Part shown: piece by piece, positions 1 through 60,353 of the stretch
Layout: the number at the start of each line of letters is the position of its first letter
Position numbering within the stretch: the stretch's first letter is position 1
Virus record (IMG/VR): IMGVR_UViG_3300013131_000042
Span: 3,962 to 67,961 of that record
Source of the DNA: a virus
Direction: 5' to 3' (one strand)
Length of the DNA stretch: 64,000 nucleotides
Translations under genes and position numbers: made by a program
The notes under the pieces: model-generated
Seen by the model: the letters and a program-made list of their open reading frames with translations, nothing else
What the model was told of the DNA's origin: nothing
The model's database searches: none

Positions 1-1
1 C

Positions 2-916
2 TACGACATCTGCATCTTCACGGGCGGTCTGATTCAGTGGTGTGAGCGCGGCCAGTACTCGGTCAGCGCGATGCTCGGCGCCGTTTCCGAGAAACAGCCG
101 GACCTTGTGCAGAACTGCCTGCGCCCTGCCATGAACGCAGCGGACGTTGTATTTAAGCGCAGCGATAAAGGCTGGCGCTTCTACTTCAAGGACGGCAGTC
201 TCGTGATGACCGAGGCGGAGCAGCGCAGGCAGTTCTTCGGCTCGCCGACCGTGGGCAAGAAGGGCACGTGGCAGGAAGCGAACAAGGAGCTGGCCCGTAA
301 CTGGACGGCCTGCTTTGTGAACATCTGGGCAGATGAGCAGGCGCGCAGGACGCAGGTCGAGTTTACGGCCAAGGGGCTCATCTCGAACTTCGTGTTCGGT
401 GAGGCTCGGACGCAGCTGTTCGGGGCAGGCTCGCCACAGAGCAACGCGGGCCTCCCAGGGGCCGTCCGTGCGGCTTTCATCTCCTTCGCGGCCAACAACC
501 CGGCCAAGACGCTCGCAGCCTACAAGGCGGCGCAGGCGGCGAACCTGCCGATGTGGACGCAACCCTGGGCGGTAGAGGTGCTCAAACATCTTACCTACAC
601 GCCCAAGATCGCCATCTACCCGGAGCGGTACAACAAGATCCGTCCCGTCATTGAGAAGCTCTACGGCGTGGATCTGCCTGATATGGCTGAACATCTGCGC
701 GGAGCCGGGGTCTCGAAAGAGGCGCTCATGGGCACGAAGGAAGCGCAAGAACGGCTCATCAAACTGGGGTACAATCTCGGACCGGCAGGTGCAGATGGTA
801 TTGCTGGCGCGAAAACTCGTGCAGCTATCATGGAGTTTCAGGTAAGGAACGCTATGCCTGCTGACGGTGAATTGTCGATGGCGACCGCACTAAAACTGCG
901 GGAACAGACGAAGTAG
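2..916 (+). CDS. Putative endolysin/cell-wall hydrolase with C-terminal peptidoglycan-binding domain (5'-truncated)
   Basis: Frame is open from nt 2 (YDICIFTGG...) so the gene starts outside the window; C-terminus AQERLIKLGYNLGPAGADGIAGAKTRAAIMEFQ...ADG is a typical PG_binding_1 signature. Confidence 0.75.
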   Translation, partial: YDICIFTGGLIQWCERGQYSVSAMLGAVSEKQPDLVQNCLRPAMNAADVVFKRSDKGWRFYFKDGSLVMTEAEQRRQFFGSPTVGKKGTWQEANKELARNWTACFVNIWADEQARRTQVEFTAKGLISNFVFGEARTQLFGAGSPQSNAGLPGAVRAAFISFAANNPAKTLAAYKAAQAANLPMWTQPWAVEVLKHLTYTPKIAIYPERYNKIRPVIEKLYGVDLPDMAEHLRGAGVSKEALMGTKEAQERLIKLGYNLGPAGADGIAGAKTRAAIMEFQVRNAMPADGELSMATALKLREQTK

Positions 917-924
917 AGGAAGCG

Positions 925-1353
925 ATGGACCAAGCAGTAGAGGACTTGTGGGCACAAATTGAAAAGCTCGTGGCTGCAGGTAAAGAGCCTGTTATCCGCA
1001 TTCCACGCGCAGCAGAGATCAAGATTCCGAAGCGCCCCGGCCCAGGGCGCCCACCAAAATACGGCGACGGTGCGAAACCCCTGATGCACACCCCCGCGGG
1101 CCTGCAGATGGGGTGCCGCAATTTCGGGTGCCTGAATCGTATCCGGAGGCGGGAGGCGGCCATCACGTGCAGCGAGCGCTGCAAGCAGGAGTTGCTAGAC
1201 TACTGCCAGCAAACCCTCGCAGTTCTCGAAGGCCAGACTTCCGCCACGGATTATCCGATGAAGTACCGATGTCGCTGGTTCACCAAGCGTCGTACGGAAA
1301 AACTGCGAGAGGTCGGACGGCCGAAGAAGCAGGAGACCGATGAAGCTGGGTGA
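925..1353 (+). CDS. Hypothetical protein with Cys motifs (CxxxxC...CxxxC) and a GRPPKY motif
   Basis: SD-like GAGGA before ATG; basic, possible Zn/DNA-binding protein. Confidence 0.6.
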   Translation: MDQAVEDLWAQIEKLVAAGKEPVIRIPRAAEIKIPKRPGPGRPPKYGDGAKPLMHTPAGLQMGCRNFGCLNRIRRREAAITCSERCKQELLDYCQQTLAVLEGQTSATDYPMKYRCRWFTKRRTEKLREVGRPKKQETDEAG

Positions 1354-1567
1354 TGCAATTAAATCGGTTACATCAGCACTTGGCATTCCGCAGTGCGAGC
1401 CGTGCAAGGAGCGCCAGCGGAAGTTGAATGAGCTGAGCGACTACCTCAACAACCTATTCGGAGGCGAAAATGGACCAGTGGCAACAGTCGGGACCGCTCC
1501 ATCTGATGGAGATGATGGAGATGGCGGACCAGCAAAAGCAGTCGCAGGAGAGGTCCCGCCGCGCTGA
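1340..1567 (+). CDS. Small hypothetical protein (LGD...GIPQCEPCKERQRKLN)
   Basis: AGGAG SD; CxxC motif of a type common in small phage proteins. Confidence 0.55.
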   Translation: MKLGDAIKSVTSALGIPQCEPCKERQRKLNELSDYLNNLFGGENGPVATVGTAPSDGDDGDGGPAKAVAGEVPPR

Positions 1568-1739
1568 ACGTGAGGCCGACGCTGCGATTGCCTTCGCCAT
1601 CGGGACGCGTGACGGGTTTACCCCGACGCAGCAGGAGTTTCGCAACGCGTTTGCAAATATCCGGAAAAACCCCTACGGTAGTGGGCGAGGCTTCGGTTTT
1701 TCCATCGACACCTCTGGGCGTAAACCAAATAACACGTGA
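1470..1739 (+). CDS. Hypothetical protein
   Basis: GGAGG SD upstream of ATG; phage-like codon usage. Confidence 0.55.
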   Translation: MDQWQQSGPLHLMEMMEMADQQKQSQERSRRAEREADAAIAFAIGTRDGFTPTQQEFRNAFANIRKNPYGSGRGFGFSIDTSGRKPNNT

Positions 1740-1747
1740 GGTAAATC

Positions 1748-1972
1748 ATGGCTGTTGCTAAGAAGGCCACGAAGAAGGCCGCTAAGAAGGCGGGCGCTGG
1801 CGGCGCCAAGAAGGCTGCGAAGAAGGTTGGCCGCAAGGCTACGAAGAAGGCTGGTGCAGGCGGCGCGAAGAAGGCGGGTGCCCGTCGCGCTGGTGCGGGT
1901 GGTGCTCGCCGGGCGACGGCACGTCGTGCGGGGGCAGGCGGCGCTGGTAAGGGCGGCACGGGCAACACCTGA
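1748..1972 (+). CDS. Histone H1/protamine-like Lys-Ala-Gly-Arg-rich basic protein
   Basis: GAGGT SD; 74 aa with repeated AKKA and AGAGGA units, no acidic or aromatic residues. Confidence 0.75.
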   Translation: MAVAKKATKKAAKKAGAGGAKKAAKKVGRKATKKAGAGGAKKAGARRAGAGGARRATARRAGAGGAGKGGTGNT

Positions 1973-2060
1973 CCACCACGCGGACAAGGTGGGTGTAGCC
2001 TGAATCGAAACCGCGTTACCAACCGAAAGCAGGCCACCCAACTAACGCAGCAGAGGATTT
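1973..2060 (+). ncRNA. Candidate structured leader RNA (pseudoknot-capable) upstream of the queC-like operon
   Basis: TGGGTG(1990-1995)/CACCCA(2035-2040) plus GCCTG(1998-2002)/CAGGC(2030-2034) stem, crossed by ACGCGG(1978-1983)/CCGCGT(2011-2016). Confidence 0.35.
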
Positions 2061-2768
2061 ATGCCAGTTGTATTCTTTTCTGGCGGGATTGATAGCTCGG
2101 TATTGGCTTACGACATCGCCAAGCGCCCCTTCGCCTACGGCGTCGATTTCGAGTACGAGGACTTGGTGCTCGTGACGTACGGCAAGGACGGCCGCAAGCG
2201 AGCGAACAAGTTTACCGACGAGCTAATCAAAGATGTCCGCGTGACGGTTGACGTTCGCTGGTTCGAATCACCGCTGGAGTCGTATGACCCGGAGATGGTT
2301 CCTGTGGCAGGGCACGGTACGATGGTGCCCTCTGTTGGGCCGTACACGTGGGACCGCCGCTCGATGCCGTACACGCCTGGACTCATGACGTGGCTCGCGT
2401 CGTTGGCGTTTAACCTCGTCTATAGCTGGGAACTGCCCAACGGAAAGCCGCAGGTCTTCTTCGGGTTCCAGTACGAGCCGCAGGCGTGGGCGGCGTATGA
2501 CCGTCGCAAGCTGGCGGCAAACGATACGAGCCCCGCGTACATCGAAGCCCTGAACAAGCTCAGCAAGGTAGCTGGAGAGCCTGCCCATTTTCGTGCGCCC
2601 TTCCTGGATAACCGCATGAGCCGCTACCAGATCGTGGAGCTGGGTAAGTTGCTCAAGGTGCCCCTGAAAGACACGCACTCGTGCATCATGCTGCGTGACG
2701 CGCACTGCGGCAGATGCTGTCAGTGCATCAAACGAGACTTGGCGTTCGGCATTCTGGGGGTCGTATGA
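2061..2768 (+). CDS. Divergent QueC-family PP-loop ATP pyrophosphatase
   Basis: SGGIDS PP-loop and C-terminal HSC-x7-CGRCCQC Zn motif; QueC VPGRN and YPDC motifs replaced by TPGLM and ANDT. Confidence 0.85.
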   Translation: MPVVFFSGGIDSSVLAYDIAKRPFAYGVDFEYEDLVLVTYGKDGRKRANKFTDELIKDVRVTVDVRWFESPLESYDPEMVPVAGHGTMVPSVGPYTWDRRSMPYTPGLMTWLASLAFNLVYSWELPNGKPQVFFGFQYEPQAWAAYDRRKLAANDTSPAYIEALNKLSKVAGEPAHFRAPFLDNRMSRYQIVELGKLLKVPLKDTHSCIMLRDAHCGRCCQCIKRDLAFGILGVV

Positions 2769-3472
2769 GCAAAGAAAGCGCAGTAGTTTTGTTATCTGGT
2801 GGGCAGGATTCAACGACCTGCCTCTTCTGGGCAAAGGAGCGCTTCGGGCGCGTCCACCCGTTGACCATCTATTACGGTCAGCGGCACGAGGCAGAGATCC
2901 AAGCGGCGCGCGTTATCGTCAAGCTCGCGGACATCCAAGATCATCTTGTGGTGCAGGATAGTATTCTCACTAACTTGGTATCTAGTGCGCTACTGCAGCG
3001 CACGGAACAGGCGTCCGTGAAAGAGACGCGTGCAGGCACGGACTTGCCAGCGACCTTCGTACCCGGGCGCAACCTGTTCTTCGCCACGGCCGCAGCCGCG
3101 TACGCGTACGAGATTGGCGCGCATCACGTGGTCCTCGGCGTGTGTGAGACGGACTACTCCGGCTACCCAGACTGCCGCGAACACACGCTCAGGGCGCTGG
3201 AGCAGGCGCTCCGCTACGGCATCTGGGGCGAGGAGCCTCGCTCAGCGAGCCGTAAACACCAGCTGTGGCTGCATACGCCGCTCATGTACAAGACGAAGGC
3301 AGAGAGCGTGCAGATGGCGCGTGAGTTGCCGGGCTGCTGGGATGCATTGGCCCACACGGTGACGTGCTACCTGGGCCGTCGACCAGGGTGCGGTGAGTGC
3401 CCAGCGTGCGTTTTGCGTCGTCGTGGCTTTGAGGAGGCAGGAGAAAATGACCCAGCAAGCGAAATTCACTGA
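2765..3472 (+). CDS. queC: 7-cyano-7-deazaguanine synthase QueC
   Basis: LSGGQDSTT, YGQRH, FVPGRN, DYSGYPDCR, TPL, TCY...CGECPAC motifs; ATG at 2765 overlaps upstream stop (ATGA). Confidence 0.95.
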   Translation: MSKESAVVLLSGGQDSTTCLFWAKERFGRVHPLTIYYGQRHEAEIQAARVIVKLADIQDHLVVQDSILTNLVSSALLQRTEQASVKETRAGTDLPATFVPGRNLFFATAAAAYAYEIGAHHVVLGVCETDYSGYPDCREHTLRALEQALRYGIWGEEPRSASRKHQLWLHTPLMYKTKAESVQMARELPGCWDALAHTVTCYLGRRPGCGECPACVLRRRGFEEAGENDPASEIH

Positions 3473-3905
3473 ACTTGGGCGTGGCGTAACCAAGCCGCAC
3501 GGTGCTGAGGGGCTCGAAATCTTCAAGGCACCGCGTGCTGGCTCGCTCATCGAGTTCAGAATCCCCGAATTTACGTGTCTTTGCCCTGTTACGGGGCAAC
3601 CAGACTTCGCCACCATCTACATCCGGTACCTGCCGTGGGAGAAGTGCGTCGAGTCGAAGTCGCTGAAGCTCTACATGTGGCACTTTCGTGACCGCGGAGC
3701 CTTCCATGAGGCTGTGACAGCCGAAATTTGTGACGCTTTGAACGACCTTTTGGATCCTACGTGGCTGCAAGTGGTCGGAGTCTTCAGTGTCAGAGGCGGA
3801 ATTTACGAAAAAGTAAGTGCAGAGAGGTCGAATGACGACTTTGGCGTGCTCTCAGACGCTGATTTGGCCTACTACCGCTTTAATTTGAGCGATTGTCATG
3901 GCTGA
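3447..3905 (+). CDS. queF: NADPH-dependent preQ0 reductase QueF (unimodular type)
   Basis: EFTCLCPVTGQPDFA with catalytic Cys/Asp, QueF motif ESKSLKLY, FHE, RGG; AGGAG SD before ATG 3447. Confidence 0.93.
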   Translation: MTQQAKFTELGRGVTKPHGAEGLEIFKAPRAGSLIEFRIPEFTCLCPVTGQPDFATIYIRYLPWEKCVESKSLKLYMWHFRDRGAFHEAVTAEICDALNDLLDPTWLQVVGVFSVRGGIYEKVSAERSNDDFGVLSDADLAYYRFNLSDCHG

Positions 3906-5568
3906 AGAAGAGATTCGCTGCCCACTTAGCGACCGAGAGCTGATTGATCGCATCGTTTTGTTCTGTGAGACGCTCTCTGAGGTCGCACTTTACACGTATC
4001 AGTCGCTTTTCTGCCGACGAGTGGTCGAATCCGTCATCGGAAACGAGGGTTCGAACATTACGGGCCTCTGGAGCCGTCAGTCGGGCAAGACTGAGACGGT
4101 TGCGTGCGTGTGTCTGGGCCTTTCGGTGCTCCTACCGGCCTTGGCGAAGGCTTTTCCGGACGATCCGAGGCTGAAACCGTACCATAAGGGCTTCTCTGTC
4201 GGTGTTTACGCGCCTGTTAAGGACCAAGCGGAGATTTCCTTCGGTCGTATGCGCAATAAAGTGCACTCTGAGTACGGAGAGGGCATTTTGCACGACCCCG
4301 AGATTGGGGTTGAGGTCGTCACGAGCCGTGGTGACACGCTTTCCTTCTCCAACGGCTCAACAATTATCGCAAGAACTGCCTCTCCCGACACGCAGATTGA
4401 AGGTAAGACTCACCACCTCATTATTTGCGAAGAGGCGCAGAAATTGTCGCGTACGAAGGTCGAAAAAGAGATTCGACCGATGGCTGCGTCGACCAACGGT
4501 ACGTTCGTGACCATCGGAACTGCGTGGGAGAGTCGTGGTGGCTTTCACCAGTCGATCCAGAAGAACGTGGACGTGCACAAGACTGGCGGGAAGCGCTCGC
4601 ACTTCGAATTCGGGTGGGATATCGTCTGCGACGAGAAAAAGCGGGCATTCCAGAAGGATAAGAACCCGTTTCACCTGAACTACGAGAAGTTCGTCCAGGG
4701 CGAGATTTTTAGACTCGGTGGCACAGATAGCCCTGAGTTCCAGATGAACTTCGAGTGCAAGTGGCAAGAGAGTCGAGCCATTGCCATCAGTAAAAACGTT
4801 TTCAAAGACGCTGCGCTCAACGATGTGGAGTCCGGACCATTCACGCAGACGGGATTCCAGGTGGCGGGCCTGGACATCGGAAAGACCAACGACGCCACCG
4901 TCCTGACCATCTTGGACGTAGATATGCAGCGGCCTATTCGTAACCCCTATGTGCTCGGGGATGCAAACGAGGATAAACAGCTCTATTACCCAAAGATCGT
5001 CGTCGACTGGGTAGAGCTGATGGGCTCGTTCGAAGGCCATTCGGGCCAGTACGCGATGCTTGTGGACTACTTGGCCCGAACTAACGTCAAGGTTATGGTC
5101 ATCGACGCTACTTCGATGGGTGACCCTGTCTACGAGCGCATCGAAGCGATGATTGGCGGGTCCATCATCTGCGTCCCGTACAAGTTCTCCTCAATTAGCA
5201 AGTCGAACCTCTACAAATACTACCTACAAGAGCTTAACTCTGGTCGGGTAAAGTACGCGGCAGGTCCTACGACGCGGCAACGGCATGAGTTCCGCAAGTT
5301 CACCCAGGAAAACTTGGATCTGGACAGGATCGACTATGGCTCGTACGCTGTCTGCCAAGCCCCGGAAGGTGGCCATGACGACTACCCGGACTCTGCTGCG
5401 CTCGCCTGCTGGGCGGAGAAGATTGCTGGGGACGTTGCCTTACCTGAAATCAAGGTAGAATCGGCATCGACAGTGTTCGGTGGCCACGGTCGACGTGGGC
5501 GAGGTCAGAGTGAAGGTTCGGTAACCGTCTCAGGCGGTAGAGGTTCGCGATATGCGCGTCGTGGGTAA
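3898..5568 (+). CDS. Terminase large subunit
   Basis: Walker A SRQSGKT, Walker B ICEEAQ, coupling motif IGT, RNase H-like GLDIG...D and HDDYPD; upstream of portal. Confidence 0.92.
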   Translation: MAEEEIRCPLSDRELIDRIVLFCETLSEVALYTYQSLFCRRVVESVIGNEGSNITGLWSRQSGKTETVACVCLGLSVLLPALAKAFPDDPRLKPYHKGFSVGVYAPVKDQAEISFGRMRNKVHSEYGEGILHDPEIGVEVVTSRGDTLSFSNGSTIIARTASPDTQIEGKTHHLIICEEAQKLSRTKVEKEIRPMAASTNGTFVTIGTAWESRGGFHQSIQKNVDVHKTGGKRSHFEFGWDIVCDEKKRAFQKDKNPFHLNYEKFVQGEIFRLGGTDSPEFQMNFECKWQESRAIAISKNVFKDAALNDVESGPFTQTGFQVAGLDIGKTNDATVLTILDVDMQRPIRNPYVLGDANEDKQLYYPKIVVDWVELMGSFEGHSGQYAMLVDYLARTNVKVMVIDATSMGDPVYERIEAMIGGSIICVPYKFSSISKSNLYKYYLQELNSGRVKYAAGPTTRQRHEFRKFTQENLDLDRIDYGSYAVCQAPEGGHDDYPDSAALACWAEKIAGDVALPEIKVESASTVFGGHGRRGRGQSEGSVTVSGGRGSRYARRG

Positions 5569-6049
5569 TGGAATCGGTATTGATGTACGCGGTGGGACGC
5601 CTGCGCTGCAAAAGCGTATTCGAGAGGCTGTCTCCCGTTACCCGTCGTGGTTTGTCCGAGCCGCACGCGTCGCTCATTTTGAGATTTCGGACGCTCCGGA
5701 AGTGCGAGACCAGCTGGCCATCTACCAGCACGGGACTCGTATTGTTTACATCTGGTCTAAAATTGGTGGGTTGGTGCAGAAGGCGATTGGCCACGAACTG
5801 GCCCACGCCATCGACGACAACTTTGACCAGCCGCACGCCTTCAGTAGTGTGCCGGACTGGCAGCAACTTCACCGTAACCAGAGCAACTTCGACATACCAA
5901 AGTATGGAGAAATTCCGCTGGAATACTTCGCGGACATGGTGACCAAGTACTTCATGTACGGGCCACAGAAACTGTCCACGACGCATCCATCGGAAGTGGT
6001 GTTTATTAGCAACGTGTTTAAGATTCTCCAAGAGGAGTTTGGATCATGA
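5552..6049 (+). CDS. Putative zinc metallopeptidase (HEXXH)
   Basis: GHELAHAID followed downstream by EYFAD, a zincin pattern resembling anthrax-LF-like domains. Confidence 0.7.
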   Translation: MRVVGNGIGIDVRGGTPALQKRIREAVSRYPSWFVRAARVAHFEISDAPEVRDQLAIYQHGTRIVYIWSKIGGLVQKAIGHELAHAIDDNFDQPHAFSSVPDWQQLHRNQSNFDIPKYGEIPLEYFADMVTKYFMYGPQKLSTTHPSEVVFISNVFKILQEEFGS

Positions 6050-6486
6050 GCAAGCTGAGCAAGAAGGACCTTCACACCCCGTTCACCTCGAAGACGATCT
6101 CCAAGCTGATCGGCTTCTTCCTCCGCGGTCAGTCGGAGCAGGCGACCGCTGCGAGCCTCGCGGCTGCGCCTGTCGTTGGCCTCACCCCCGCGACCCAGAA
6201 CGGCAAGATCACGAGCCTTTACCTCGTGTCGTCGAACGCTGCCGCCGCGGGTGAGTCGATGGTCATCGACGTGCTCAAGAACGGCGTGTCGATTCTCACG
6301 TCGACCTACACCTTCAACAACACGAAGAGCGCGGACACGCAGATCGAACTTCCGCTTGCGGCGGCTTCGGCTAACCTTCTGATCGGTGACCGCCTCACGG
6401 TGACGCGTACGTACACCGCGGGTGGCTCGCCGACGATGACGGCGACGAGCGTCGTTGCCGAGTACAGCCCGAACGACAGCGAGTAA
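6046..6486 (+). CDS. Putative virion structural protein (beta-rich)
   Basis: Strong GAGGAG SD, strongly biased codons, Thr/Ala/Ser-rich beta composition (IDVLKNGVSIL...GDRLTV). Confidence 0.6.
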   Translation: MSKLSKKDLHTPFTSKTISKLIGFFLRGQSEQATAASLAAAPVVGLTPATQNGKITSLYLVSSNAAAAGESMVIDVLKNGVSILTSTYTFNNTKSADTQIELPLAAASANLLIGDRLTVTRTYTAGGSPTMTATSVVAEYSPNDSE

Positions 6487-6490
6487 TACA

Positions 6491-6706
6491 ATGTCTAACC
6501 CAGGCGGACGTGGTGGATGGTCATGGGGTGTAACCCCTGAGACGCGTAACCTCATGAGCGACCCGGGGTACTCCCCGACGCTCCGTGAGTCGCTTACGCT
6601 CGGCGTTGGCAAGGCGCACCGGAACGTGGTTTATGCGAACTACGATTTCCGTAACTTCGGACGTTCGTACCTCGGCACGCAAGGACGTATCGGCGAGGAG
6701 GAGTGA
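6491..6706 (+). CDS. Hypothetical protein
   Basis: ATG at 6491 directly after upstream stop; fills the operon. Confidence 0.55.
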   Translation: MSNPGGRGGWSWGVTPETRNLMSDPGYSPTLRESLTLGVGKAHRNVVYANYDFRNFGRSYLGTQGRIGEEE

Positions 6707-6709
6707 GGC

Positions 6710-7198
6710 GTGGGCCTCTACTACGTCCGATATTATGCTGACATGATCCACCCGGATCGGTTCAAGGGCTCCGCAAGGGGCCTACTGATCCGGGGGCTCA
6801 ATTTTATGCGCTGGAAGCTGGAGACGGCTGTCCAGCGTTTGGTGCTTCGTTGGATGCTCGACCACCATGCTGTGGATGCACAGCGTGGCACTGAGCTAAA
6901 ACGGAGCTTCGAGCTTGATGTCGCAGCAGAGAACTTGGAGATGGCGCAAACCTCGCCTCTGAGGGCTGAAGAGGTGCGCATGACCGCTGCGCGTGCAGAA
7001 CGTTACGCGATGGGCGGCGGACTTGTCTCCACCATGGATGCGGCGCTGAAGGAGAACATGGAACTCCCGAAGCGGCCTATGCCCCCACAGAACCTCATCG
7101 CGGCTTTTGGCGGAGAGCCGCGCACTTCTCGTTACGCCAAAGGCCACCGTAGGACGCTCCAGGCGGACGAGTCACATTTCGAGCCTGTAGATGAGTGA
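6710..7198 (+). CDS. Hypothetical protein
   Basis: GTG start with GAGG SD; in operon. Confidence 0.6.
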   Translation: MGLYYVRYYADMIHPDRFKGSARGLLIRGLNFMRWKLETAVQRLVLRWMLDHHAVDAQRGTELKRSFELDVAAENLEMAQTSPLRAEEVRMTAARAERYAMGGGLVSTMDAALKENMELPKRPMPPQNLIAAFGGEPRTSRYAKGHRRTLQADESHFEPVDE

Positions 7199-7448
7199 TC
7201 TTTCGGAAGCTACTTCAGCCATTGGGTGGGTCCTCGCTCACGGAGTAGAGGCCGTCGAGGCTGTTATTATCATCGCGCAATCTCTGGCGCTGCGTAGTCT
7301 CTGGATGGACTGCAAGGCGTGCACGGAAAAGCGTGTGGAAGAGACACGCGAGTTTATCGACATCGCTGAGCGACTTCACGACAAGATACACGGCACTGCC
7401 GATGACTTGGTAAAAGTCGCTCAGTTTATCGAGAAGAGGCGACCATGA
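7191..7448 (+). CDS. Small membrane protein (possible holin-like)
   Basis: N-terminal hydrophobic stretch and charged helical C-terminus. Confidence 0.45.
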   Translation: MSDLSEATSAIGWVLAHGVEAVEAVIIIAQSLALRSLWMDCKACTEKRVEETREFIDIAERLHDKIHGTADDLVKVAQFIEKRRP

Positions 7449-7627
7449 TTAAGGGGAAAGTTAACAAGGAGCAGCTGTGCCTGCGCGAGTCGCTCTCAAA
7501 GCTGGAGACGGCGCTCGTCCGTCTTGACACAGTAAGAGAGATCATTCGTGGAGTTATTACGAACGATGTTGAGCGCGCTGTGCTGTTTGCACAGCCGGAT
7601 GAGGCGCAACCTAAGCAGGTGCACTAA
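7445..7627 (+). CDS. Hypothetical protein
   Basis: ATGA-coupled, in operon. Confidence 0.5.
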   Translation: MIKGKVNKEQLCLRESLSKLETALVRLDTVREIIRGVITNDVERAVLFAQPDEAQPKQVH

Positions 7628-7935
7628 TGCCGACCAACTTCCCCGCAGTGCAGGACGCTACTCTGCAGAAGTTTTTAGACGCGTTAGTTGAGTGCGTACG
7701 TCTTCCTGACGGCTCGGCGCCCGCTGTGGCGCCAAATGCCTTTAAGGACTCCTTGCAGGAGGTGGTGCCGCTCACGTACATCAGCGAGGTCGCTGTCAAC
7801 TTCCGTGTCACCGCAGACGGACTCTCGGCCCTCGTGTCGATCGAACCGCTTGGTGGTTTGCGTGGCGCGTCTCGCGGAGCCTACCCCGTCGCAGGGGTCG
7901 TTGATATTACTACACTCGCCAGCAAGCTGGCCTGA
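7627..7935 (+). CDS. Hypothetical protein
   Basis: TAATG coupling; AGGT SD. Confidence 0.55.
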   Translation: MPTNFPAVQDATLQKFLDALVECVRLPDGSAPAVAPNAFKDSLQEVVPLTYISEVAVNFRVTADGLSALVSIEPLGGLRGASRGAYPVAGVVDITTLASKLA

Positions 7936-7947
7936 TATAGAGTCGCC

Positions 7948-10080
7948 ATGCCCCTCTCGTTTTTCACCAACTCCGGTAACAGCTACGGCAGCGCTCTGCC
8001 GTTTCAGCGCATCGTAGAGCCCGCGCAGCTTGGGTTCTTCCTGGACCTGGAGCAGGCAGAGCTGCTGCGTATCCAGCGGTATAACGAGGGGTGGCGCTTC
8101 TACTTCGGCAAGCACTGGATGTTCAAGCGAGAGGACGGTGAGCCTCTCGTCACCATCAACCTCTTCCGCAAGATCATTGACAAGAGCGTCGCGTTCCTTG
8201 TGGCCAAGGGCTTCAACATCTCGACCCCGGAAACTCTGGAAGAGGTTACGAAGCCTTTTATTGACGAGGTGTGGACGTATAACAAGCGCGACCAGTTTGC
8301 TTGGGACGCCGCCACGATGGGCGCGTGCACGGGCGACGTTTTCGTACTCATCACGTACGAAGACCCGACGCCGATGCAGCAGCGCATCAACCCGTTCTCG
8401 CAGGGCCGTATCCGCGTCAACCTGCTTGGCTCGGAACAGGTCTACCCCACGTGGGACCCGCTGAACACGGATACGCTCGTCGCGGTGCGCATCGAGACGG
8501 TCTACTACGCCGAGCGCGGGACGCGTGAGCTAGACCGGGATGACCGCGTGAATCACGAGGGTCGTCAGCTCTACACGAGGCGTTTTACGCAGATCATCAC
8601 GCCGACGCAGATCGTGGAGCAGTTCCACGGAGAACAGCCTCGCGTGCGCCCGAACGTCCTGGGCGAGATTCCCATGGTGCACATCAAGAATCTGTCGCTG
8701 CCGAAGGAGTACTACGGCCTCAGCGACGGCTTCGACCTGATTGATCTGCAGCGGGAACTCAATGAGAAGGCTACCGATATTTCCGATACTATTAACTATC
8801 ACTCTGCACCTGTCACGGTTATTACTGGAGCTAAAGCCTCGCAGCTGAGCCGTGAAGCGCGTCAGATTTGGTCGGGCCTGCCGAAGGATGCCAACGTCTT
8901 CAACCTGAAGCTCGAAGGCGATCTCACAGCCGCGCACAACTATCTCAAGTTCATCAAGACATCGCTGCACGAGCTGTCTGACGTGCCCGAGAACGCGCTT
9001 GGCGCTTCTCAGCCCATCTCGAATACCAGCGGTGTGGCGCTGCATCTTCAGTATCAGCCGCTCATCGAGAAGACGCGTCGTAAGAAGGTGCAGTACGCGC
9101 CTGGTTTCGAGCAGATTAATTACTTCATCCTGCGCATCGGCATGGCGAAGGGCCTGATTAATCTGCCGTTTGACCTGTGCCGTCACTGCGGCGGTCGCAT
9201 CATCGAGATTGAGACGAAGGACACGGCCAAGGTCTGGAATCCCGAGGCGCAGACTTACGTCGACCAGCCTATTCGGAAGAAGCGCTGTTACCACATCGAG
9301 AAGGGCACTTTCGAGTTCTCAAAGCCGGAAGAGATGCGCCTCAAGTTCTGGCGCAAGTACGGCTTCGGGCAGGAGCTTCGAGAACTGCCGTATGCACAAA
9401 TTGAGAAGGAGATGCGCGGCGGTTTTGAGTCGTTTTGGGACTACGCGGCGCAGCAAGAGAAGAAACTGCAGGCGTGGGTTGAGGCGAACAAGGCCCAACT
9501 GACGCCCCAGCCTGCCCCTGCGGGTGAGGGAGAGCCCGCCCCGCAGGCTGCACCGATGCAGATTCCGCCCGAGCTTGCGAAGCTGCTGGGGCCGCAGCCA
9601 CCCAAGGGTCTGACCCCCGGCGTGATTCCGACGCACGAGATTGACGTGCCGGAGGAGCCGGAGAAGGTTACTGTTACTATCCCGTACGTTAATCCTGATA
9701 CGCAGGAGTACATGTTCTCGGAGACGAAGGAGCTGTTCCTCGTCCCCACGGGATGCCATCGTCCAGCCTACCTGAACCCCTTTGAGTCCACCGTGGACTT
9801 CCAAGAGACGCTGCCGAAGGATGAGGCCATTCAGTCGCAGCTCTACGCGCAGTATCAGGCGTCTGGCTGGGTCGACGCAGACTGGGTCCGTGAGCGCATC
9901 CCTGAGATTGCCGCGGATGCCAGCGAGATTCGTCGCCGCATGAAGAATCAACCCGTGGCGCCTGCAAAGGGTGCGAACATGTACCAGGAGCTGGCGCCAC
10001 CGCAGACGCCGACTGCCTCGGTACCTGATGCGGCGGGAAACCCTGTCTCTGTAACCAATCAACTCGATAATCAGAAGTGA
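7948..10080 (+). CDS. Portal protein (SPP1-like) with internal insertion
   Basis: N-x4-IIDKSVAFL, LGEIPMVHIKN, GLSD..DLIDLQRELN, NTSGVAL...YQPL, F..TLPKD features typical of SPP1-type portals; position after terminase. Confidence 0.88.
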   Translation: MPLSFFTNSGNSYGSALPFQRIVEPAQLGFFLDLEQAELLRIQRYNEGWRFYFGKHWMFKREDGEPLVTINLFRKIIDKSVAFLVAKGFNISTPETLEEVTKPFIDEVWTYNKRDQFAWDAATMGACTGDVFVLITYEDPTPMQQRINPFSQGRIRVNLLGSEQVYPTWDPLNTDTLVAVRIETVYYAERGTRELDRDDRVNHEGRQLYTRRFTQIITPTQIVEQFHGEQPRVRPNVLGEIPMVHIKNLSLPKEYYGLSDGFDLIDLQRELNEKATDISDTINYHSAPVTVITGAKASQLSREARQIWSGLPKDANVFNLKLEGDLTAAHNYLKFIKTSLHELSDVPENALGASQPISNTSGVALHLQYQPLIEKTRRKKVQYAPGFEQINYFILRIGMAKGLINLPFDLCRHCGGRIIEIETKDTAKVWNPEAQTYVDQPIRKKRCYHIEKGTFEFSKPEEMRLKFWRKYGFGQELRELPYAQIEKEMRGGFESFWDYAAQQEKKLQAWVEANKAQLTPQPAPAGEGEPAPQAAPMQIPPELAKLLGPQPPKGLTPGVIPTHEIDVPEEPEKVTVTIPYVNPDTQEYMFSETKELFLVPTGCHRPAYLNPFESTVDFQETLPKDEAIQSQLYAQYQASGWVDADWVRERIPEIAADASEIRRRMKNQPVAPAKGANMYQELAPPQTPTASVPDAAGNPVSVTNQLDNQK

Positions 10081-10088
10081 GGCTAATT

Positions 10089-10391
10089 ATGAAGGATATG
10101 AGCAACTGTTCGGGCTACACGACGGGCGACAAGGGCGGCTCGTGCGGCCCTGTGGGTCACGGCATGTCGAGCTGCGGGACCAAGAAGATGGGCATGGGCG
10201 GCAAGAGCGGCCGTCGCACGAAGGCCACCCCGGGTATGTACTACTCGGACGGCATGGGTGGCATGAGCCACAAGTACATGGCCGGTGACGGGATGGATGG
10301 TATGCCTTCCATGAACACGCATGAGTTCAAGGGCGGCATGAAGGGTAAGACCCCGTTCCTCAAGAAGATGATGGCGAAGAAGGGCAAGTAA
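10089..10391 (+). CDS. Met/Gly/Lys-rich small basic protein
   Basis: GAGG SD before ATG 10089; low complexity; carries HKY...THEF motif. Confidence 0.6.
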   Translation: MKDMSNCSGYTTGDKGGSCGPVGHGMSSCGTKKMGMGGKSGRRTKATPGMYYSDGMGGMSHKYMAGDGMDGMPSMNTHEFKGGMKGKTPFLKKMMAKKGK

Positions 10392-10392
10392 T

Positions 10393-10812
10393 ATGTTCAT
10401 CCCGAATCAGTTCGTCTCGTCGACCGCGTTGCGTCAGCGTGAGTATGACCCCGAGGGTCGTCTGCGTGAGTTTCGCATCACGGGCGGACGCGATTCGGAT
10501 GATGGGGGCATCGCCGAGGCAAACAGCCTCTACGCCACGGATGCCGAGTTTTTCGGGTCGATGGCGCCGTTCCTCAGACGCAATAAGGCACGGGACGCGC
10601 GACGCCGTAACTATGTCATCCAGCCGGGAGGAGCTGCGATCGTGTTCAGCGGTCCTGCCCCGGCGGTGCCCCCCTCGCCCCTGCGGGCGCTTATGCCCTC
10701 TGCGCAAGAGTCCTTCGGCCATAACTCCTACGATGGGACCAAATTTGGTGGCGGAGGAGCAGTGTTTAATGTGAGTGATGCTGGACCTGTGGGTAGGGGC
10801 GGTGCTAGGTAG
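10393..10812 (+). CDS. Hypothetical head-region protein
   Basis: Tightly coupled ORF between portal and scaffold. Confidence 0.6.
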   Translation: MFIPNQFVSSTALRQREYDPEGRLREFRITGGRDSDDGGIAEANSLYATDAEFFGSMAPFLRRNKARDARRRNYVIQPGGAAIVFSGPAPAVPPSPLRALMPSAQESFGHNSYDGTKFGGGGAVFNVSDAGPVGRGGAR

Positions 10813-10835
10813 CCTCGCTCAACCCGAGGTACAGC

Positions 10836-11549
10836 ATGATTCTGAGCAAATTTGCGTTGCAAGCCGTTCTCGTTGCCGCTGAGGTTTTTTCCAGCCCCAC
10901 GCGTGACTTCGAAAAGCTGAGCGGAATTGCAGCTAGCGTTGCGGCCAGTGTCGAGGAGAGCCGCGTGTTGCCGTTCGAGGGTGAGGCCGCGCAAGAGGCG
11001 ACGGTGCTCGCCCTCGTAGCTATTTCGGCGCACGAGAGCCATTTCCGGGACGACATCCGCCAGTGCAAGGTCCGCGGAGACCATGGGGCCAGCGTGTCCA
11101 TGTACCAACTACACAATGGTGTTATTTGGCGCGGCAACAGCCTCAAGGATATCTGTAATAATGAGGTTCTTGCGGGTAAATTGGCGATTCAAGCCTTGGT
11201 AGATGCCAAGCAGCGGCTGAAGACCATTCGCAGCATGTTCCGTGGATATGCTACTGGAAATCCTGCGAAGCCTGCAGCTAGCGCCGATGCGCATCACGGG
11301 CTTTCTGGCATGTTCTTTACGCTTGCCAAACATCCAGACTTCGACATCATTCCTAGTGATAGTAATCGTCGTCTGAGCGCCTCCTGGAGAACTAATGAGC
11401 AAGAAAAAGCCACCTTTGGGGTCAGGCGCTCGTTTCGCCAAGCTGGAGAAGTCTCTGGAGGCGAAGGGGGCGGAGAAGCCGCAGGCGCTTGCTGCTTGGA
11501 TCGGCCAGAAAAAGTATGGTCCTTCCAAGATGGCAAAGATGGCTGCTAA
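10836..11549 (+). CDS. Lysozyme-like/lytic transglycosylase-like protein
   Basis: AISAHESHF (catalytic ES) followed by GD.G.S...YQ motif and later Y.TG; hydrophobic N-terminus; last ~50 aa overlap the next gene. Confidence 0.6.
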   Translation: MILSKFALQAVLVAAEVFSSPTRDFEKLSGIAASVAASVEESRVLPFEGEAAQEATVLALVAISAHESHFRDDIRQCKVRGDHGASVSMYQLHNGVIWRGNSLKDICNNEVLAGKLAIQALVDAKQRLKTIRSMFRGYATGNPAKPAASADAHHGLSGMFFTLAKHPDFDIIPSDSNRRLSASWRTNEQEKATFGVRRSFRQAGEVSGGEGGGEAAGACCLDRPEKVWSFQDGKDGC

Positions 11550-11685
11550 AGAGCGGTCTAAAAAGCACGGAATGCAGATGGGTCCGTCTGGCTATGGCAC
11601 GACGCACGGCCTCGTTCACGTGTATGGCGCTGAGGCGTATGACCCCAACGCTCATGAGTATCTGAGCCCCGCACAGGATTACTAA
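11395..11685 (+). CDS. Small basic head-region protein
   Basis: GGAG SD; Lys-rich G.RF..L...ALAAWIG.KKYG segment; C-terminal HVY...AHEY tag. Confidence 0.65.
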   Translation: MSKKKPPLGSGARFAKLEKSLEAKGAEKPQALAAWIGQKKYGPSKMAKMAAKERSKKHGMQMGPSGYGTTHGLVHVYGAEAYDPNAHEYLSPAQDY

Positions 11686-12140
11686 TGTCGTTGACCAAGT
11701 GGTTCGACGAGAAGTGGGTTGATATCTCCCGTCCTAAAAAGGACGGGGGGTATGAATCCTGCGGCCGTAAAGACGCTTCAGAGGGCAAGTACCCGAAGTG
11801 TCTCCCGGCTGCGAAGGCTGCACGCCTCTCGGAGACGGAGCGCAGCTCGGCCGTTCGTCGCAAGCGTAGTGCGGAGAGCAAGATGGCTGGCAAGAAGGAT
11901 GGAAAGCCTGTATTCGTGGCCACGAAGGCGGAACACGGCGCTTCGGAGCCCACGAACAAGAAGCTCTACGCGCAGGTGAAGTCGGCAGCGAAGAAGAAGT
12001 TCGACGTGTACCCCTCTGCTTACGCTAATGGCTGGCTTGTGCAGGAGTACAAGAAGCGTGGCGGCGGTTATCGCAACACGCATGGCTACACGGCGGACGA
12101 AGAGTGCTGTAACGACAACAGCCACGAGTACCGCAAATGA
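11685..12140 (+). CDS. Basic head-region protein (DUF5872-like)
   Basis: L.KWF.EKWVDI...CGR...YPKCLP and YPSAYANGWLVQEYKKRGGGY segments, recalled from phage DUF5872-like proteins; C-terminal HGY...SHEY tag. Confidence 0.7.
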   Translation: MSLTKWFDEKWVDISRPKKDGGYESCGRKDASEGKYPKCLPAAKAARLSETERSSAVRRKRSAESKMAGKKDGKPVFVATKAEHGASEPTNKKLYAQVKSAAKKKFDVYPSAYANGWLVQEYKKRGGGYRNTHGYTADEECCNDNSHEYRK

Positions 12141-12325
12141 AGCGCAAGCCCAAAGTTAGTGCGCCCGTGAATTTTGGCGAAAACAGCGTCGCGGGCTACG
12201 ACCTTGGGCCTCTCATGCCCTCGAACCGTGCCGAGATTCCGATGAACTCGCACGATCAAATTGAGCGGCTGAATGCCAATGACATCACTGGATTCCGCTG
12301 GGACATCCGGTTTGACGGAGTTTAA
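12137..12325 (+). CDS. Hypothetical protein
   Basis: ATGA-coupled ORF. Confidence 0.5.
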   Translation: MKRKPKVSAPVNFGENSVAGYDLGPLMPSNRAEIPMNSHDQIERLNANDITGFRWDIRFDGV

Positions 12326-12327
12326 CG

Positions 12328-12768
12328 GTGAAGAAAATGGGCCTATCTAAGCGTGACATGAATCGTTTCATGGAAGTCGTACCCGGACCGTCCCCTGTCC
12401 CGGGTCCGTCGCGTTCCGTTGGCGTGGGCGTGGGCGGTCTTCCGCTCTTCCACGAGGGCGGCGTTCGTGCGGGCGGTGACTGGGAGACCCTTCCCTCGGT
12501 CATGGTGCCGTTGCCGAAGCAGGGCTACGACGAGCATCGGTTCCACGGGATGGGGCCATCCAAGGCGTCGATGATGTCGCTTGAAGAGGGCGAGGAAGGT
12601 AGTGAAGATGCAGAAGACATGCCGCCGTCCTCAAAGCCAGCCCCGCCGACCACGGGTAAAATGGGCATGGGCCGGAACGCCAGCTGCGGTTTCCGTGGTT
12701 GTGGATTTGCCTCGAAAGACCATGGTCTTATGGCAAAGCATCGTCTATCGTCCCATGGGCTCAAGTAA
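12328..12768 (+). CDS. Hypothetical low-complexity protein with C-terminal C2H2-like motif
   Basis: GGAG SD; ends CGFRGCGF...LMAKHRLSSH. Confidence 0.55.
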   Translation: MKKMGLSKRDMNRFMEVVPGPSPVPGPSRSVGVGVGGLPLFHEGGVRAGGDWETLPSVMVPLPKQGYDEHRFHGMGPSKASMMSLEEGEEGSEDAEDMPPSSKPAPPTTGKMGMGRNASCGFRGCGFASKDHGLMAKHRLSSHGLK

Positions 12769-12774
12769 TCTTTC

Positions 12775-12795
12775 GTACTGATTTAGTATCGGTAC
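12775..12795 (+). promoter_or_regulatory. Intergenic inverted repeat, copy 1 of GTACTGATTT(C)AGTA motif
   Basis: GTACTGAT-TTAGT-ATCGGTAC hairpin; same core recurs upstream of the capsid gene. Confidence 0.4.
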
Positions 12796-12822
12796 TATCT
12801 CACTGCAACAGGAGACACGAAC

Positions 12823-13149
12823 ATGGCTGTTAATTTTGGCAAGACGACCAACATGGTCGAGGGCTCGCTCGGCTCTGGTGACTACCAGATGTACGGCGTC
12901 GGTAACAACCCGATGGCTTTCCGTGAGGCCACCCGCAAGGGCAAGTTCCCGAGCGACAACACCGGTCCGGACCGCTCGCAGGGTGAGAACTCTGGCGCCG
13001 GTTCGCTCTACTCGGCGATGCTCAATGAGCGCCCGAACATCTCGAACCCGCGTAACCGCGGCCCGGAGCGCGCCCCGTCGCGCGATGGTGCGACCTCGAT
13101 TCCGATCGTCGCGATGACTGCCCGTGGTACGGGCCGCGTCGGCGGCTGA
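12823..13149 (+). CDS. Hypothetical, probably abundant virion/head protein
   Basis: AGGAG SD, strongly biased codon usage like the capsid gene. Confidence 0.65.
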   Translation: MAVNFGKTTNMVEGSLGSGDYQMYGVGNNPMAFREATRKGKFPSDNTGPDRSQGENSGAGSLYSAMLNERPNISNPRNRGPERAPSRDGATSIPIVAMTARGTGRVGG

Positions 13150-50344: not shown

Positions 50345-51444
50345 GTGGAGTAACTCCGGAGAAGCTGCAGAAGTGGTTGGTTGAGGCGGGAGCACAGCGC
50401 ATCAGGCTGTCTCCCACCGGCAACTTCATTTCGACGTGCCCGTTTCACGCCGATACGAGCCCATCGTTCTCGATTCACGGAACGACTGGGCTTTACCACT
50501 GCTTCTCCCAAAGCTGCGGAGCTGTTGGCAATGCGTTTACGTTCGTTACGAGGGCGCTCGGCTGGACGCGGGACAGGGCTATCGAAGAACTCGGCGCCTG
50601 GGACGGGGATGACGCAGACAAGGTCGTCGCGGAACTCCTCACCTTCCCAGACTACGCAGATCGATTTAAGTCCGGAGACCTTGGCCCAACTGAGACTTCT
50701 ATTTCAGCCCACCAACTCGGAGCATATAGTTTCTGCCCACGATACCTCCTCAATAGAGGATTTGATAAAGCTGTGCTTTCCGCTTGGGAAGTGGGATATG
50801 ATCTTACCACTGGCCGGGTTACTATTCCTGTGCGGTCTATGGATGGGCTGCTCGTGGGGATCAGCAAGCGCGCCGACGAGGGTACCCCCGGAGCCAAGTA
50901 CGTCCACCTCGGGTTCAACAAAGGATCCTTCCTCTACGGAGCCGACCAAGCCCCGCGTGGTTCCGAGGTCTGGGTCGGGGAAGGACAACTGGACGCCATT
51001 GCCCTCGACCAATTCGGACTGCCCAGGGGGTTCGCCGTGTCAACGATGGGTGCCCTCGTAAGCGAAGCGCAGATTAAACTACTCTCTGTTTACAAGCGCG
51101 TCGTCCTGTGCTTTGACAACGACATGAACGGCGTCATGGCGACTCTACGGGTTGGCCATGGCCTCACGCAGACCGCTGTCGAGCAAATACTTGTCGCCGA
51201 CAAATTTCCACAAGACATAAAAGACCCTGCCGACCTACTACTTGCTACTGATAAACAGCGCTCTACTTTTATAAATGAACTAACTCCATACGAACTCTGG
51301 TCTGTCAACACACTACTCACAATCTCAGAAGGTAAGAACAATGCGAGGCTTTGGCGCAGTAAAGGAAGTGAAGAAGGAGATGGACGAGCGACGCGCTTCG
51401 TTCGGCGGGAACCGCGTCCAGGACTTCATCATCAAAGACGGTGA
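50341..51444 (+). CDS. dnaG: DnaG-type primase
   Basis: CPFH.D..PSF...YHCF..SC zinc finger; TOPRIM EGQLDA and FDND; KDP. Confidence 0.9.
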   Translation: MSGVTPEKLQKWLVEAGAQRIRLSPTGNFISTCPFHADTSPSFSIHGTTGLYHCFSQSCGAVGNAFTFVTRALGWTRDRAIEELGAWDGDDADKVVAELLTFPDYADRFKSGDLGPTETSISAHQLGAYSFCPRYLLNRGFDKAVLSAWEVGYDLTTGRVTIPVRSMDGLLVGISKRADEGTPGAKYVHLGFNKGSFLYGADQAPRGSEVWVGEGQLDAIALDQFGLPRGFAVSTMGALVSEAQIKLLSVYKRVVLCFDNDMNGVMATLRVGHGLTQTAVEQILVADKFPQDIKDPADLLLATDKQRSTFINELTPYELWSVNTLLTISEGKNNARLWRSKGSEEGDGRATRFVRREPRPGLHHQRR

Positions 51445-60108: not shown

Positions 60109-60353
60109 TGCAGAATTTTGAGGCCACGTGCTGTGGCTCGGCGGACGAGCGCAAACAAGTTATCGAGCGCGTAACCAAGGCGCTGGTGCAAGGCCACACA
60201 GGCTTGGCGATGCTCTACGAGACCTTTGCCAAGCAAGAACCTCCCCATGGTGTGAAAGGCACGGAGGAGGAGGCGGAGTTCCGTGCGGAGGCAGAGCGGC
60301 AGCTGGAGCTGGCTAAACAGAGCGGGGAGATGCTCGTACCGGAGGGCCTATGA
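60105..60353 (+). CDS. Hypothetical protein
   Basis: GGAGGT SD; coupled to queD. Confidence 0.55.
   Translation: MMQNFEATCCGSADERKQVIERVTKALVQGHTGLAMLYETFAKQEPPHGVKGTEEEAEFRAEAERQLELAKQSGEMLVPEGL

Follow-up and report, generated by a model that had tools for sequence, protein, structure and literature searches.

A remodelled QueC paralogue encoded beside queC and queF in a phage packaging operon is a candidate tailoring enzyme of the dPreQ1 pathway

A 64,000-nucleotide stretch of viral DNA (hereafter the window; bases 3962-67961 of the linear 67,961-bp IMG/VR virus record IMGVR_UViG_3300013131_000042, which is estimated to be 72% complete) encodes two QueC-fold proteins in overlapping genes. 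One is a canonical QueC, a synthase of 7-cyano-7-deazaguanine (preQ0). The other, a divergent protein of 235 amino acids that we call QueCdiv, keeps the PP-loop and the zinc site of the fold and has lost the substrate-pocket signature of preQ0 synthesis. We propose, with a probability of roughly 0.4, that QueCdiv is a catalytically active, adenylate-forming ligase whose product is an additional 7-deazaguanine derivative in a phage DNA-modification pathway based on dPreQ1, the deoxynucleoside form of 7-aminomethyl-7-deazaguanine (preQ1).

QueCdiv matches the Pfam QueC family (PF06508) with an E value of 2.4e-14 and 53.8 bits (cut-off 22 bits) over residues 155-230 only, and scores 40.7 bits on TIGR00364, again through its C-terminal part only, which places it below the QueC equivalog cut-off of 150.3. 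Aligning a profile of its family with a profile of canonical QueC extends the relationship to the whole length (probability 99.95%, E = 3.1e-38, 16% identity). By this comparison homology to QueC is far above chance, and on its Pfam and profile matches QueCdiv is a member of the PP-loop ATP pyrophosphatase superfamily and, in the broad sense, of PF06508. An AlphaFold2 model predicted from the family alignment has a mean predicted local distance difference test score (pLDDT) of 93.7, and its sole Foldseek matches at E <= 0.001 are the protein deazaguanylase Cap9 (9nto_B, E = 2.4e-07) and QueC (2pg3, E = 3.9e-06). Profile comparison, too, ranks Cap9 first among the solved relatives (E = 4.5e-11; QueC, 2.5e-08). 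The PP-loop, SGGIDS, occupies residues 7-12 and is invariant in 27/27 family sequences. Equally invariant are the cysteines C208, C216, C219 and C222, which form the C(x)8CxxCxxC zinc site of canonical QueC with C(x)7C as the first spacing in the window protein. The first-pass annotation of this DNA had described two translationally coupled QueC-fold genes, the first of which retains the SGGxDS loop and the C-terminal zinc-binding cysteine cluster; the Pfam, profile and Foldseek matches, these residues and an ATGA overlap between the two genes confirm both points.

The family to which QueCdiv belongs is small and distinct. A HMMER search of 1.84 billion cluster representatives returned 443 proteins at E <= 0.001, 45 at <= 1e-10 and 22 at <= 1e-30; the top matches cover QueCdiv over its full length, whereas ordinary QueC proteins match its C-terminal part only. 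About 26 further representatives make up the QueCdiv clade, all of them viral or metagenome sequence, and no fused form of 476-2000 amino acids appeared at E <= 1e-10. The family alignment (A1) comprises the window protein and 26 of the 30 best matches, P0026, P0029, P0031 and P0033 having been dropped as partial. Its members are 232-271 amino acids long and share 27-73% identity with the window protein. Across these 27 sequences S7, G8, G9, D11, S12, D155, P180, S207, C208, C216, G217, C219 and C222 are invariant, and conservation is 90% or higher at D18, P23, Y26, G27, N118, W143, D147, N165, R185, P201 and T205. A model built from the alignment gives members 282-306 bits and the other QueC-like open reading frames (ORFs), at 199 loci, 100 bits or fewer. 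On this pattern of conservation QueCdiv is a real, selected gene and family, not a decayed copy.

Other searches indicate how rarely the family has been sampled. A word-index search with the family alignment found 13 clusters at E <= 1e-40, of 1-8 members each and none named beyond 'hypothetical protein'. In 50,697 GenBank phage records no member occurs; the 98 matches there all lie below 30% identity. A viral-contig scan with the single QueCdiv protein found no relative, the matches listed by a metagenome scan for the PP-loop pattern were all ordinary QueC-like genes, none above 31% identity, and an ESM Atlas search returned generic QueC clusters only. The back-translated pattern APFLENRM hit five viral stretches, two of them true QueCdiv members (one new), and 32 in prokaryote genomes, of which the family model accepts none. 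Because this pattern is narrow and misses the window's own QueCdiv gene, the absence of QueCdiv from cellular genomes is only weakly shown.

The residues lost and kept are those of a remodelled active site. The canonical QueC signature consists of SGGxDS, YxQxHxxE, VPxRN, YPDC, a conserved lysine and the four-cysteine site, and the substitutions Y35A, R99A, Y131A and Y189A each abolish function of the Escherichia coli enzyme (PMC13329287). None of these four essential residues has a conserved counterpart in QueCdiv. The family alignment holds no conserved equivalent of YxQxHxxE (Y35) after strand 2. In the profile alignment, VPGRN falls opposite TPGLM in the window protein and TPGLH in the family consensus, with leucine in place of the arginine (R99). 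YPDC is replaced by x-N-D-T(S-P), A-N-D-T in the window protein, in which the aspartate alone, D155, is kept, and is invariant. The residue after the first zinc cysteine is aliphatic (SCI, SCL or SCV) as against (S/T)CY, with Y189, in QueC. The first-pass annotation had argued that the pocket signature is lost while the ATP loop and zinc site are kept, and the TIGR00364 score and both alignments bear this out. It had described the losses as changes to Y40-G41-K42, T104-P105-G106-L107-M108 and A153-N154-D155-T156; all three stretches are present as given, but the first motif is lost rather than changed because its tyrosine is not conserved across the family.

D155 aligns with D117 of Cap9 in the profile match to 9nto_B. 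In Cap9, D117 hydrogen-bonds the conjugated deazaguanine, on which Y115 and R86 stack (bioRxiv 2025.04.06.647259); the profile alignments show both stacking residues to be lost in QueCdiv. Conserved residues peculiar to QueCdiv include a D18...P23..Y26-G27 motif, W143 and D147, and two insertions relative to QueC lie at about residues 69-100 and 137-152. What QueCdiv shares with canonical QueC is the fold, SGGxDS, the C-terminal four-cysteine zinc site, a similar length, the aspartate of YPDC and a setting among deazaguanine genes; it differs in lacking YxQxHxxE, the VPxRN arginine, the tyrosine and cysteine of YPDC and the tyrosine after the first zinc cysteine, and in having the two insertions, a new D...P.RYG motif and a clade of its own. 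By signature QueCdiv is predicted not to be a preQ0 synthase, and we read the pattern as that of a rebuilt substrate pocket rather than a dead one.

Almost all window genes lie on the + strand. QueCdiv stands in a tight operon at the left end, in the order lysine-rich ORF, QueCdiv, QueC, QueF and terminase large subunit (TerL), and the remaining deazaguanine genes, for QueD, QueE and FolE, lie at the opposite end within the replication module (60.3-62.2 kb):

71-916: endolysin-like gene with a peptidoglycan-binding domain, at the left end of the window; three small genes follow, then the operon.
1748-1972, + strand: small basic Lys/Gly/Ala-rich protein of 74 amino acids beginning MA; ORF with GAGG before the ATG.
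2061-2768, + strand: QueCdiv, divergent QueC-fold PP-loop/zinc protein of 235 amino acids; ORF, Pfam, TIGR00364, profile and model.
2765-3472, + strand: canonical QueC; Pfam QueC 223.9 bits, TIGR00364 206.7 bits, with YGQRH, VPGRN and YPDC present.
3447-3905, + strand: QueF, unimodular preQ0 reductase making preQ1; PF14489 104 bits, TIGR03139 137.6 bits.
3898-5568, + strand: TerL; Terminase_6C and Terminase_6N matches.
60350-60736, + strand: QueD-like 6-carboxytetrahydropterin synthase; phrog_2389, E = 5.3e-19.
60733-61473, + strand: QueE-like radical SAM enzyme, synthase of 7-carboxy-7-deazaguanine (CDG); Radical_SAM and Fer4_12, phrog_2076, E = 4.7e-33.
61612-62241, + strand: FolE, GTP cyclohydrolase I; PF01227, 188.6 bits.

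The QueCdiv ATG at 2061 is preceded four bases upstream by AGAGGA, and its TGA stop is joined to the queC ATG at 2765 by the ATGA overlap. The most likely start of queF is the ATG at 3447, which falls within the last part of queC and behind GAGGAGG, a start taken from this Shine-Dalgarno site where the ORF list has an upstream GTG at 3393. The TerL ATG at 3898 overlaps the queF stop, eight bases ahead of the end of queF, and through this overlap the three deazaguanine genes lie in a packaging operon.

The neighbouring QueC matches Pfam QueC over its full length (2e-66) and exceeds the TIGR00364 cut-off, and QueF scores 137.6 bits on the unimodular equivalog TIGR03139 against a cut-off of 86.9, so that the first-pass identification of a true QueF beside a canonical queC is upheld. 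The QueF translation contains the stretches EFTCLCPVTGQPD and ESKSLKLY, which we take to be the catalytic cysteine and the NADPH motif. All five genes of dPreQ1 biosynthesis (FolE, QueD and QueE, plus QueC and QueF) are encoded in the window. A known preQ1 tailoring enzyme is not seen, as none of the 27 window ORFs scanned with Pfam, a subset of the total, belongs to a methyltransferase or formyltransferase family. Megablast of window positions 1-12000 against GenBank phages gave no match.

Relatives of the phage share the arrangement. Six viral records carry QueCdiv: the window's own, G001, G002, G003, G004 and the 14.9-kb contig L214, which is nearly the same phage as G001 (81,362 bp, with terminal repeats and 100% complete). 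The neighbourhood survey that the first-pass annotation had suggested as a check finds the order QueCdiv-QueC-QueF-TerL in 6/6 records, with the QueCdiv stop and the QueC start overlapping in 5/5 junctions read. Among these relatives TerL is 53-60% and QueCdiv 40-43% identical to the window's proteins. G001 is colinear with the window and extends beyond its right end. Past the point where the window's record ends, it encodes a DpdA-like protein of 389 amino acids that matches phrog_887, 'queuine tRNA-ribosyltransferase' (E = 3.5e-27), as do proteins of G002 (E = 1.7e-34) and G004 (E = 2.1e-35). The PHROG model was needed to detect this protein because PF01702, the tRNA-guanine transglycosylase (TGT) family, matched nothing in G000-G003 even with the threshold relaxed to E <= 1; distant phage DpdA subfamilies are likewise described as detectable only with HHpred (PMC10516641). 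With its DpdA-like gene counted in, the lineage would by gene content be equipped to insert preQ1 into DNA; QueCdiv is the one component to which no job falls.

Three further observations concern these cassette and DpdA genes. A second ORF matches only the C-terminal third of phrog_887 (about 290-495 of 509) at L200 12203-13153 (- strand) in G001 and at L209 (G004) and L210 (G002), and looks as if it were a separately encoded DpdA C-terminal domain. At L167 1728-4157 in G004, QueF and TerL share one uninterrupted 809-codon frame: either the two proteins are fused or TerL starts within the frame. In G002 the TerL match falls in two pieces about 1 kb apart (L005, about 12144-13141), which suggests an inserted intein, intron or homing endonuclease.

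In a quick tree of 61 sequences built with IQ-TREE, in which P0011 stands as the G004 row, the QueCdiv rows group in a clade with a Shimodaira-Hasegawa-like approximate likelihood ratio test (SH-aLRT) value of 91, P0034 and P0032 falling outside the core. The five co-encoded QueC proteins form a clade of their own (SH-aLRT 99) in the ordinary QueC half of the tree, beside the QueC proteins of Streptococcus virus MS1 and of Rhodococcus phage Finch. In this quick tree QueCdiv does not cluster with ordinary QueC, the outcome that the first-pass annotation had expected of a phylogeny, and with the two proteins in separate clades we rejected the idea that the neighbouring queC was recently duplicated. 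The topology should be taken as a pointer only, since the tree is a quick one and an SH-aLRT of 91 is below the 95% mark. A sister group of six (SH-aLRT 99; P0035, P0036, P0041, P0049, P0054 and P0032) carries NP.RYG and a GFQ...W...D insertion together with an HFT..D..H motif of its own.

We regard QueCdiv as a third remodelled QueC lineage, and a phage-borne one. With Cap9, the protein deazaguanylase of type IV CBASS (cyclic oligonucleotide-based antiphage signalling system; PDB 9NTO), it shares PP-loop, zinc site and base-binding aspartate. Cap9, however, has about 185 amino acids and retains Y/FxQ, RN and YxDC (PMC13329287), whereas QueCdiv has 232-271 and lacks these motifs; and Cap9 stands beside a CD-NTase with a TGT-like partner, Cap10, whereas QueCdiv is a phage gene and not part of a defence island. 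Among the neighbours scanned around QueCdiv no CD-NTase, Cap10, QatA, QatB or QatD was seen, the window not having been scanned whole for PF18144. The PADLOC 'QueC' model gives QueCdiv 38.2 bits, through its C-terminal part only, against 45 bits for the canonical QueC. An assignment as Cap9 was rejected on PADLOC score, length, lost pocket motifs and neighbours. QatC, of the QatABCD system, resembles QueCdiv in keeping the ATP loop and zinc site while the canonical substrate motifs are swapped for family-specific ones, but it has about 400 amino acids, with N- and C-terminal extensions and motifs of its own (PMC13329287) that are absent, by eye, from the QueCdiv alignment. With E = 0.044 (10.6 bits) on the PADLOC QatC model, 235 amino acids and QueC, QueF and TerL as neighbours in place of qatA, qatB and qatD, QueCdiv was rejected as a QatC as well. 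The analogy to Cap9 and QatC drawn in the first-pass annotation does not extend to membership by model score, length or neighbours.

Phage enzymes that diversify deazaguanine bases differ from QueCdiv in other ways. Gat-QueC and phage QueC*, on the routes to dG+ (deoxyarchaeosine) and the proposed dADG (2'-deoxy-7-amido-7-deazaguanosine), are, like QueCdiv, phage QueC variants that alter or would alter the 7-deazaguanine of DNA. They replace QueC in their phages, whereas QueCdiv accompanies a canonical QueC, and Gat-QueC has a fused N-terminal class-II glutamine amidotransferase domain that Pfam and NCBIfam scans do not find in QueCdiv. The match of QueCdiv to phrog_10428 covers only the QueC-like end of that model, and an assignment as Gat-QueC was rejected for want of an amidotransferase domain or of a relative of at least 476 amino acids at E <= 1e-10. 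DpdM, a preQ1 methyltransferase, and DpdN, a proposed formyltransferase, have the pathway role that is proposed here, that of an extra enzyme decorating the preQ1 aminomethyl group in QueF-encoding phages (PMC10516641); their folds and chemistry are unrelated, and QueCdiv would need ATP and form an amide by way of an adenylate. Neither a phage QueCdiv clade nor a second QueC beside QueC and QueF is described in the parts available to us of the 2026 survey of PF06508 (PMC13329287), whose network tables may list the family, or of the 2019 and 2023 papers on phage deazaguanines (PMC6884629, PMC10516641), the latter of which may list it in Supplementary Data S1.

In PP-loop enzymes a carboxylate or carbonyl oxygen is first adenylated, after which AMP is driven out by a nucleophile; that nucleophile is ammonia in QueC and a protein N-terminus in Cap9 and QatC (PMC13329287; bioRxiv 2025.04.06.647259). 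We propose that QueCdiv, a PP-loop and zinc protein, would have given up preQ0 synthesis to become an extra tailoring enzyme of the dPreQ1 pathway. The invariant D155 would hold a guanine-like 2-amino-4-oxo 7-deazapurine in the rebuilt, probably roomier pocket, and ATP would be spent on an amide with a partner larger than ammonia. By one route the carboxylate of CDG would be activated for a larger amine; by the other, a different carboxylate would be activated and then joined to the preQ1 aminomethyl group created by QueF. Such a reaction would yield a 7-deazaguanine derivative other than the eight already known, destined for phage DNA. Substrate, partner and product are what we infer from the gene set, the conservation pattern and the residues lost and retained. 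The first-pass annotation had likewise proposed an ATP-dependent amide ligase; invariance of the PP-loop in all family sequences argues for an active ATP pyrophosphatase and makes the ligase part of that proposal a reasonable prediction.

Several points weigh against this proposal. All QueCdiv contexts come from one phage group: in a TerL tree the six QueCdiv-bearing records fall in one clade with G009, which is without the cassette. The cassette is either there as a whole or missing as a whole. Within a single phage group it may be one inherited cassette rather than the outcome of repeated selection, and its linkage to queF is for that reason not independent evidence. We accordingly rejected co-occurrence with QueF as independent support, given the one TerL clade including G009 and the fact that records without QueCdiv are mostly fragments 10-72% complete. 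PF01702 finds no DpdA in the window's own record, which is incomplete and ends before the place that DpdA takes in G001. The loss of both Cap9 base-stacking residues means that the ligand of QueCdiv may not be a deazaguanine at all, and the near-neutral isoelectric point of the family (median 6.5, range 4.5-9.0) gives no hint of direct binding to, or action on, DNA. A prediction of a complex with QueC, described below, lends weak support to a partner-subunit role. A second QueC-like gene can, moreover, exist without preQ1, as G005 (labelled a provirus, 98% complete) has two and no QueF above the Pfam cut-off in the record. These two non-canonical genes flank TerL (L222 4813-5511 and 8105-8773); one has FGQ, GRN and a tryptophan insertion, the other YGQ, GRN and CGDC in place of YPDC. 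The extra QueC-like gene of this related phage is not a QueCdiv member, with 99 bits on the family model, and the arrangement of two QueC genes is a different one.

Two QueC-like places were also seen in Vibrio phage V07, the one inspected falling within an annotated coding sequence of 463 amino acids.

The first alternative, which we regard as unlikely but worth weighing, is that QueCdiv is a partner subunit of QueC, aiding preQ0 synthesis in a heteromer that makes no new base; it might run or gate one of the two ATP-dependent half-reactions or hand the product to QueF. The overlap of stop and start at every junction read would suit equimolar subunits. A predicted QueC-QueCdiv complex scored 0.52 against 0.00 for the best of 3 controls, with runs agreeing in at least 85% of contacts and partner pLDDT of at least 77. 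This is weak support: the mark was reached by 58/80 solved complexes and 2/110 mismatched pairs, and the range at or below 0.60 held only 7/80 of the former and both of the latter. QueC is homodimeric, and because the QueC and QueCdiv chains are paralogues, the weak pass may reflect no more than likeness to solved QueC-family homodimers. A Cap9 core homodimer has been described (bioRxiv 2025.04.06.647259). An accessory subunit or pseudo-enzyme would not be expected to keep its PP-loop throughout the family and to build new conserved pocket residues. Nor does QueC need a partner of this kind, since phages such as Streptococcus virus MS1 and Rhodococcus phage Finch have just one QueC, a canonical one, in their deazaguanine clusters.

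We consider it improbable that QueCdiv acts outside the deazaguanine pathway, catalysing some other PP-loop reaction on a nucleotide, tRNA or metabolite while travelling with queC and queF. The loss of the QueC signature residues and of both base-stacking residues would fit such a role, and PF06508 includes enzymes of other pathways, in LarE and GMP synthase-like clusters (PMC13329287). Those clusters, however, are without the QueC-type four-cysteine zinc site that QueCdiv keeps (PMC13329287), the aspartate aligned with the base-binding residue of Cap9 is invariant, and the gene sits within an overlapping queC-queF operon in every record that carries it.

About as improbable is a protein deazaguanylase like Cap9 or QatC, which would activate CDG with ATP and join it to a protein amine, either on the small basic protein encoded upstream or, as counter-defence, on a host protein. 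In favour of this possibility, Cap9 is the best solved relative by both profile and Foldseek, QatC exemplifies a QueC fold that can still do such chemistry with a fully remodelled pocket (PMC13329287), and some members of the family have Lys/Arg-rich C-terminal tails (P0011, P0030). A small basic ORF beginning Met-Ala, with a Shine-Dalgarno-like site, lies directly upstream of QueCdiv in 5/5 records checked; the first-pass annotation was right that one is present in the window. N-terminal processing rules predict removal of the methionine before alanine, which would leave a free alpha-amine. Against it, the known targets expose glycine, not alanine, after methionine removal (PMC13329287; bioRxiv 2025.04.06.647259). 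The Cap9 and QueC matches are confined to the shared C-terminal third, the PADLOC QatC score is marginal, the PADLOC QueC model fits QueCdiv no better than it fits the canonical QueC, and none of the CD-NTase, QatA, QatB and QatD partners was seen nearby.

The link to the lysine-rich protein is also not specific to QueCdiv, because phages that lack QueCdiv have similar ORFs near TerL, adjoining a canonical-type QueC at L221 and other QueC-like genes at L216 and L222. On the strength of these three loci we rejected a QueCdiv-specific association, and the earlier suggestion that the lysine-rich protein is the target of QueCdiv finds no specific support. By their positions the lysine-rich ORFs look like a feature of the packaging module. 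The window's protein has no Pfam, NCBIfam or PHROG match and is perhaps DNA-binding. Small, very basic Lys/Arg/Gly/Ala-rich ORFs recur by QueC-like genes, just upstream of TerL, across the phage group. Most start with Met-Ala, and many end in a Gly-rich tail; at L216 the QueC-like gene is flanked by two long proteins with near-identical Lys-rich tails. The products may be DNA-binding or packaged proteins. The basic ORFs are:

Window, 1748-1972.
L004, 2280-2561.
L005, 9761-9922.
L006, 9757-9891.
L211, 1094-1333.
L221, 2430-2660.
L222, 5637-5750 and 5754-5864.
L216, 3128-4234 and 4939-5889.

A more elaborate form of nucleobase-protein conjugation, to which we give little credence, would have QueCdiv join a 7-deazaguanine to the upstream basic protein, with DpdA perhaps placing the conjugate in DNA. 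CDG could be attached to the protein's free N-terminus, as by Cap9 and QatC, or the Gly-rich C-terminus of the protein could be attached to the amine of preQ1. The outcome would be a genome to which a basic protein is covalently attached, or else a decoy for host defences that depend on deazaguanylation. Such conjugation would fit the kept ATP site and base-binding aspartate, the rebuilt pocket and the conserved basic neighbour, and nothing specific supports it. That QueCdiv is a decaying or inactive duplicate without a function of its own, an outcome that the first-pass annotation had allowed for, is hardly credible: a score far under the QueC equivalog cut-off would suit it, but thirteen invariant and eleven near-invariant positions persist at 27-73% identity, the frame is intact, the position is kept in phages with TerL only 53-60% identical, and the fold is predicted confidently. 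The remaining probability we assign to explanations other than those listed.

Some further window genes are of note. A SpoVS-like protein (PF04232, E = 8.3e-14) is encoded at 58211-58564, in the replication/recombination module, and adjoins a RusA-like resolvase gene (58564-59235). The ORFs at 51341-52264 (307 amino acids) and 59449-60108 (219 amino acids) have no Pfam or PHROG match. The former has a G001 counterpart (39% identity) and is sited between the primase and DNA polymerase genes; the latter, directly upstream of queD, has none in G001.

Phages are known to contain eight natural 7-deazaguanine DNA bases, and to our knowledge each extra enzyme so far (Gat-QueC, DpdM, DpdN and DpdL) was the sign of a new base. 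The QueC fold has also been known, since 2025, to link a nucleobase to proteins in two defence systems of bacteria. Should QueCdiv do no more than assist QueC, the pair would still be the first heteromeric QueC. With its ATP and zinc sites kept and its substrate pocket rebuilt, QueCdiv probably performs a new reaction on the preQ1 base pathway, and as a third remodelled QueC lineage, on the phage side and fixed in an operon with queC and queF, it is a candidate for making a ninth deazaguanine derivative or a phage-made protein-nucleobase conjugate.

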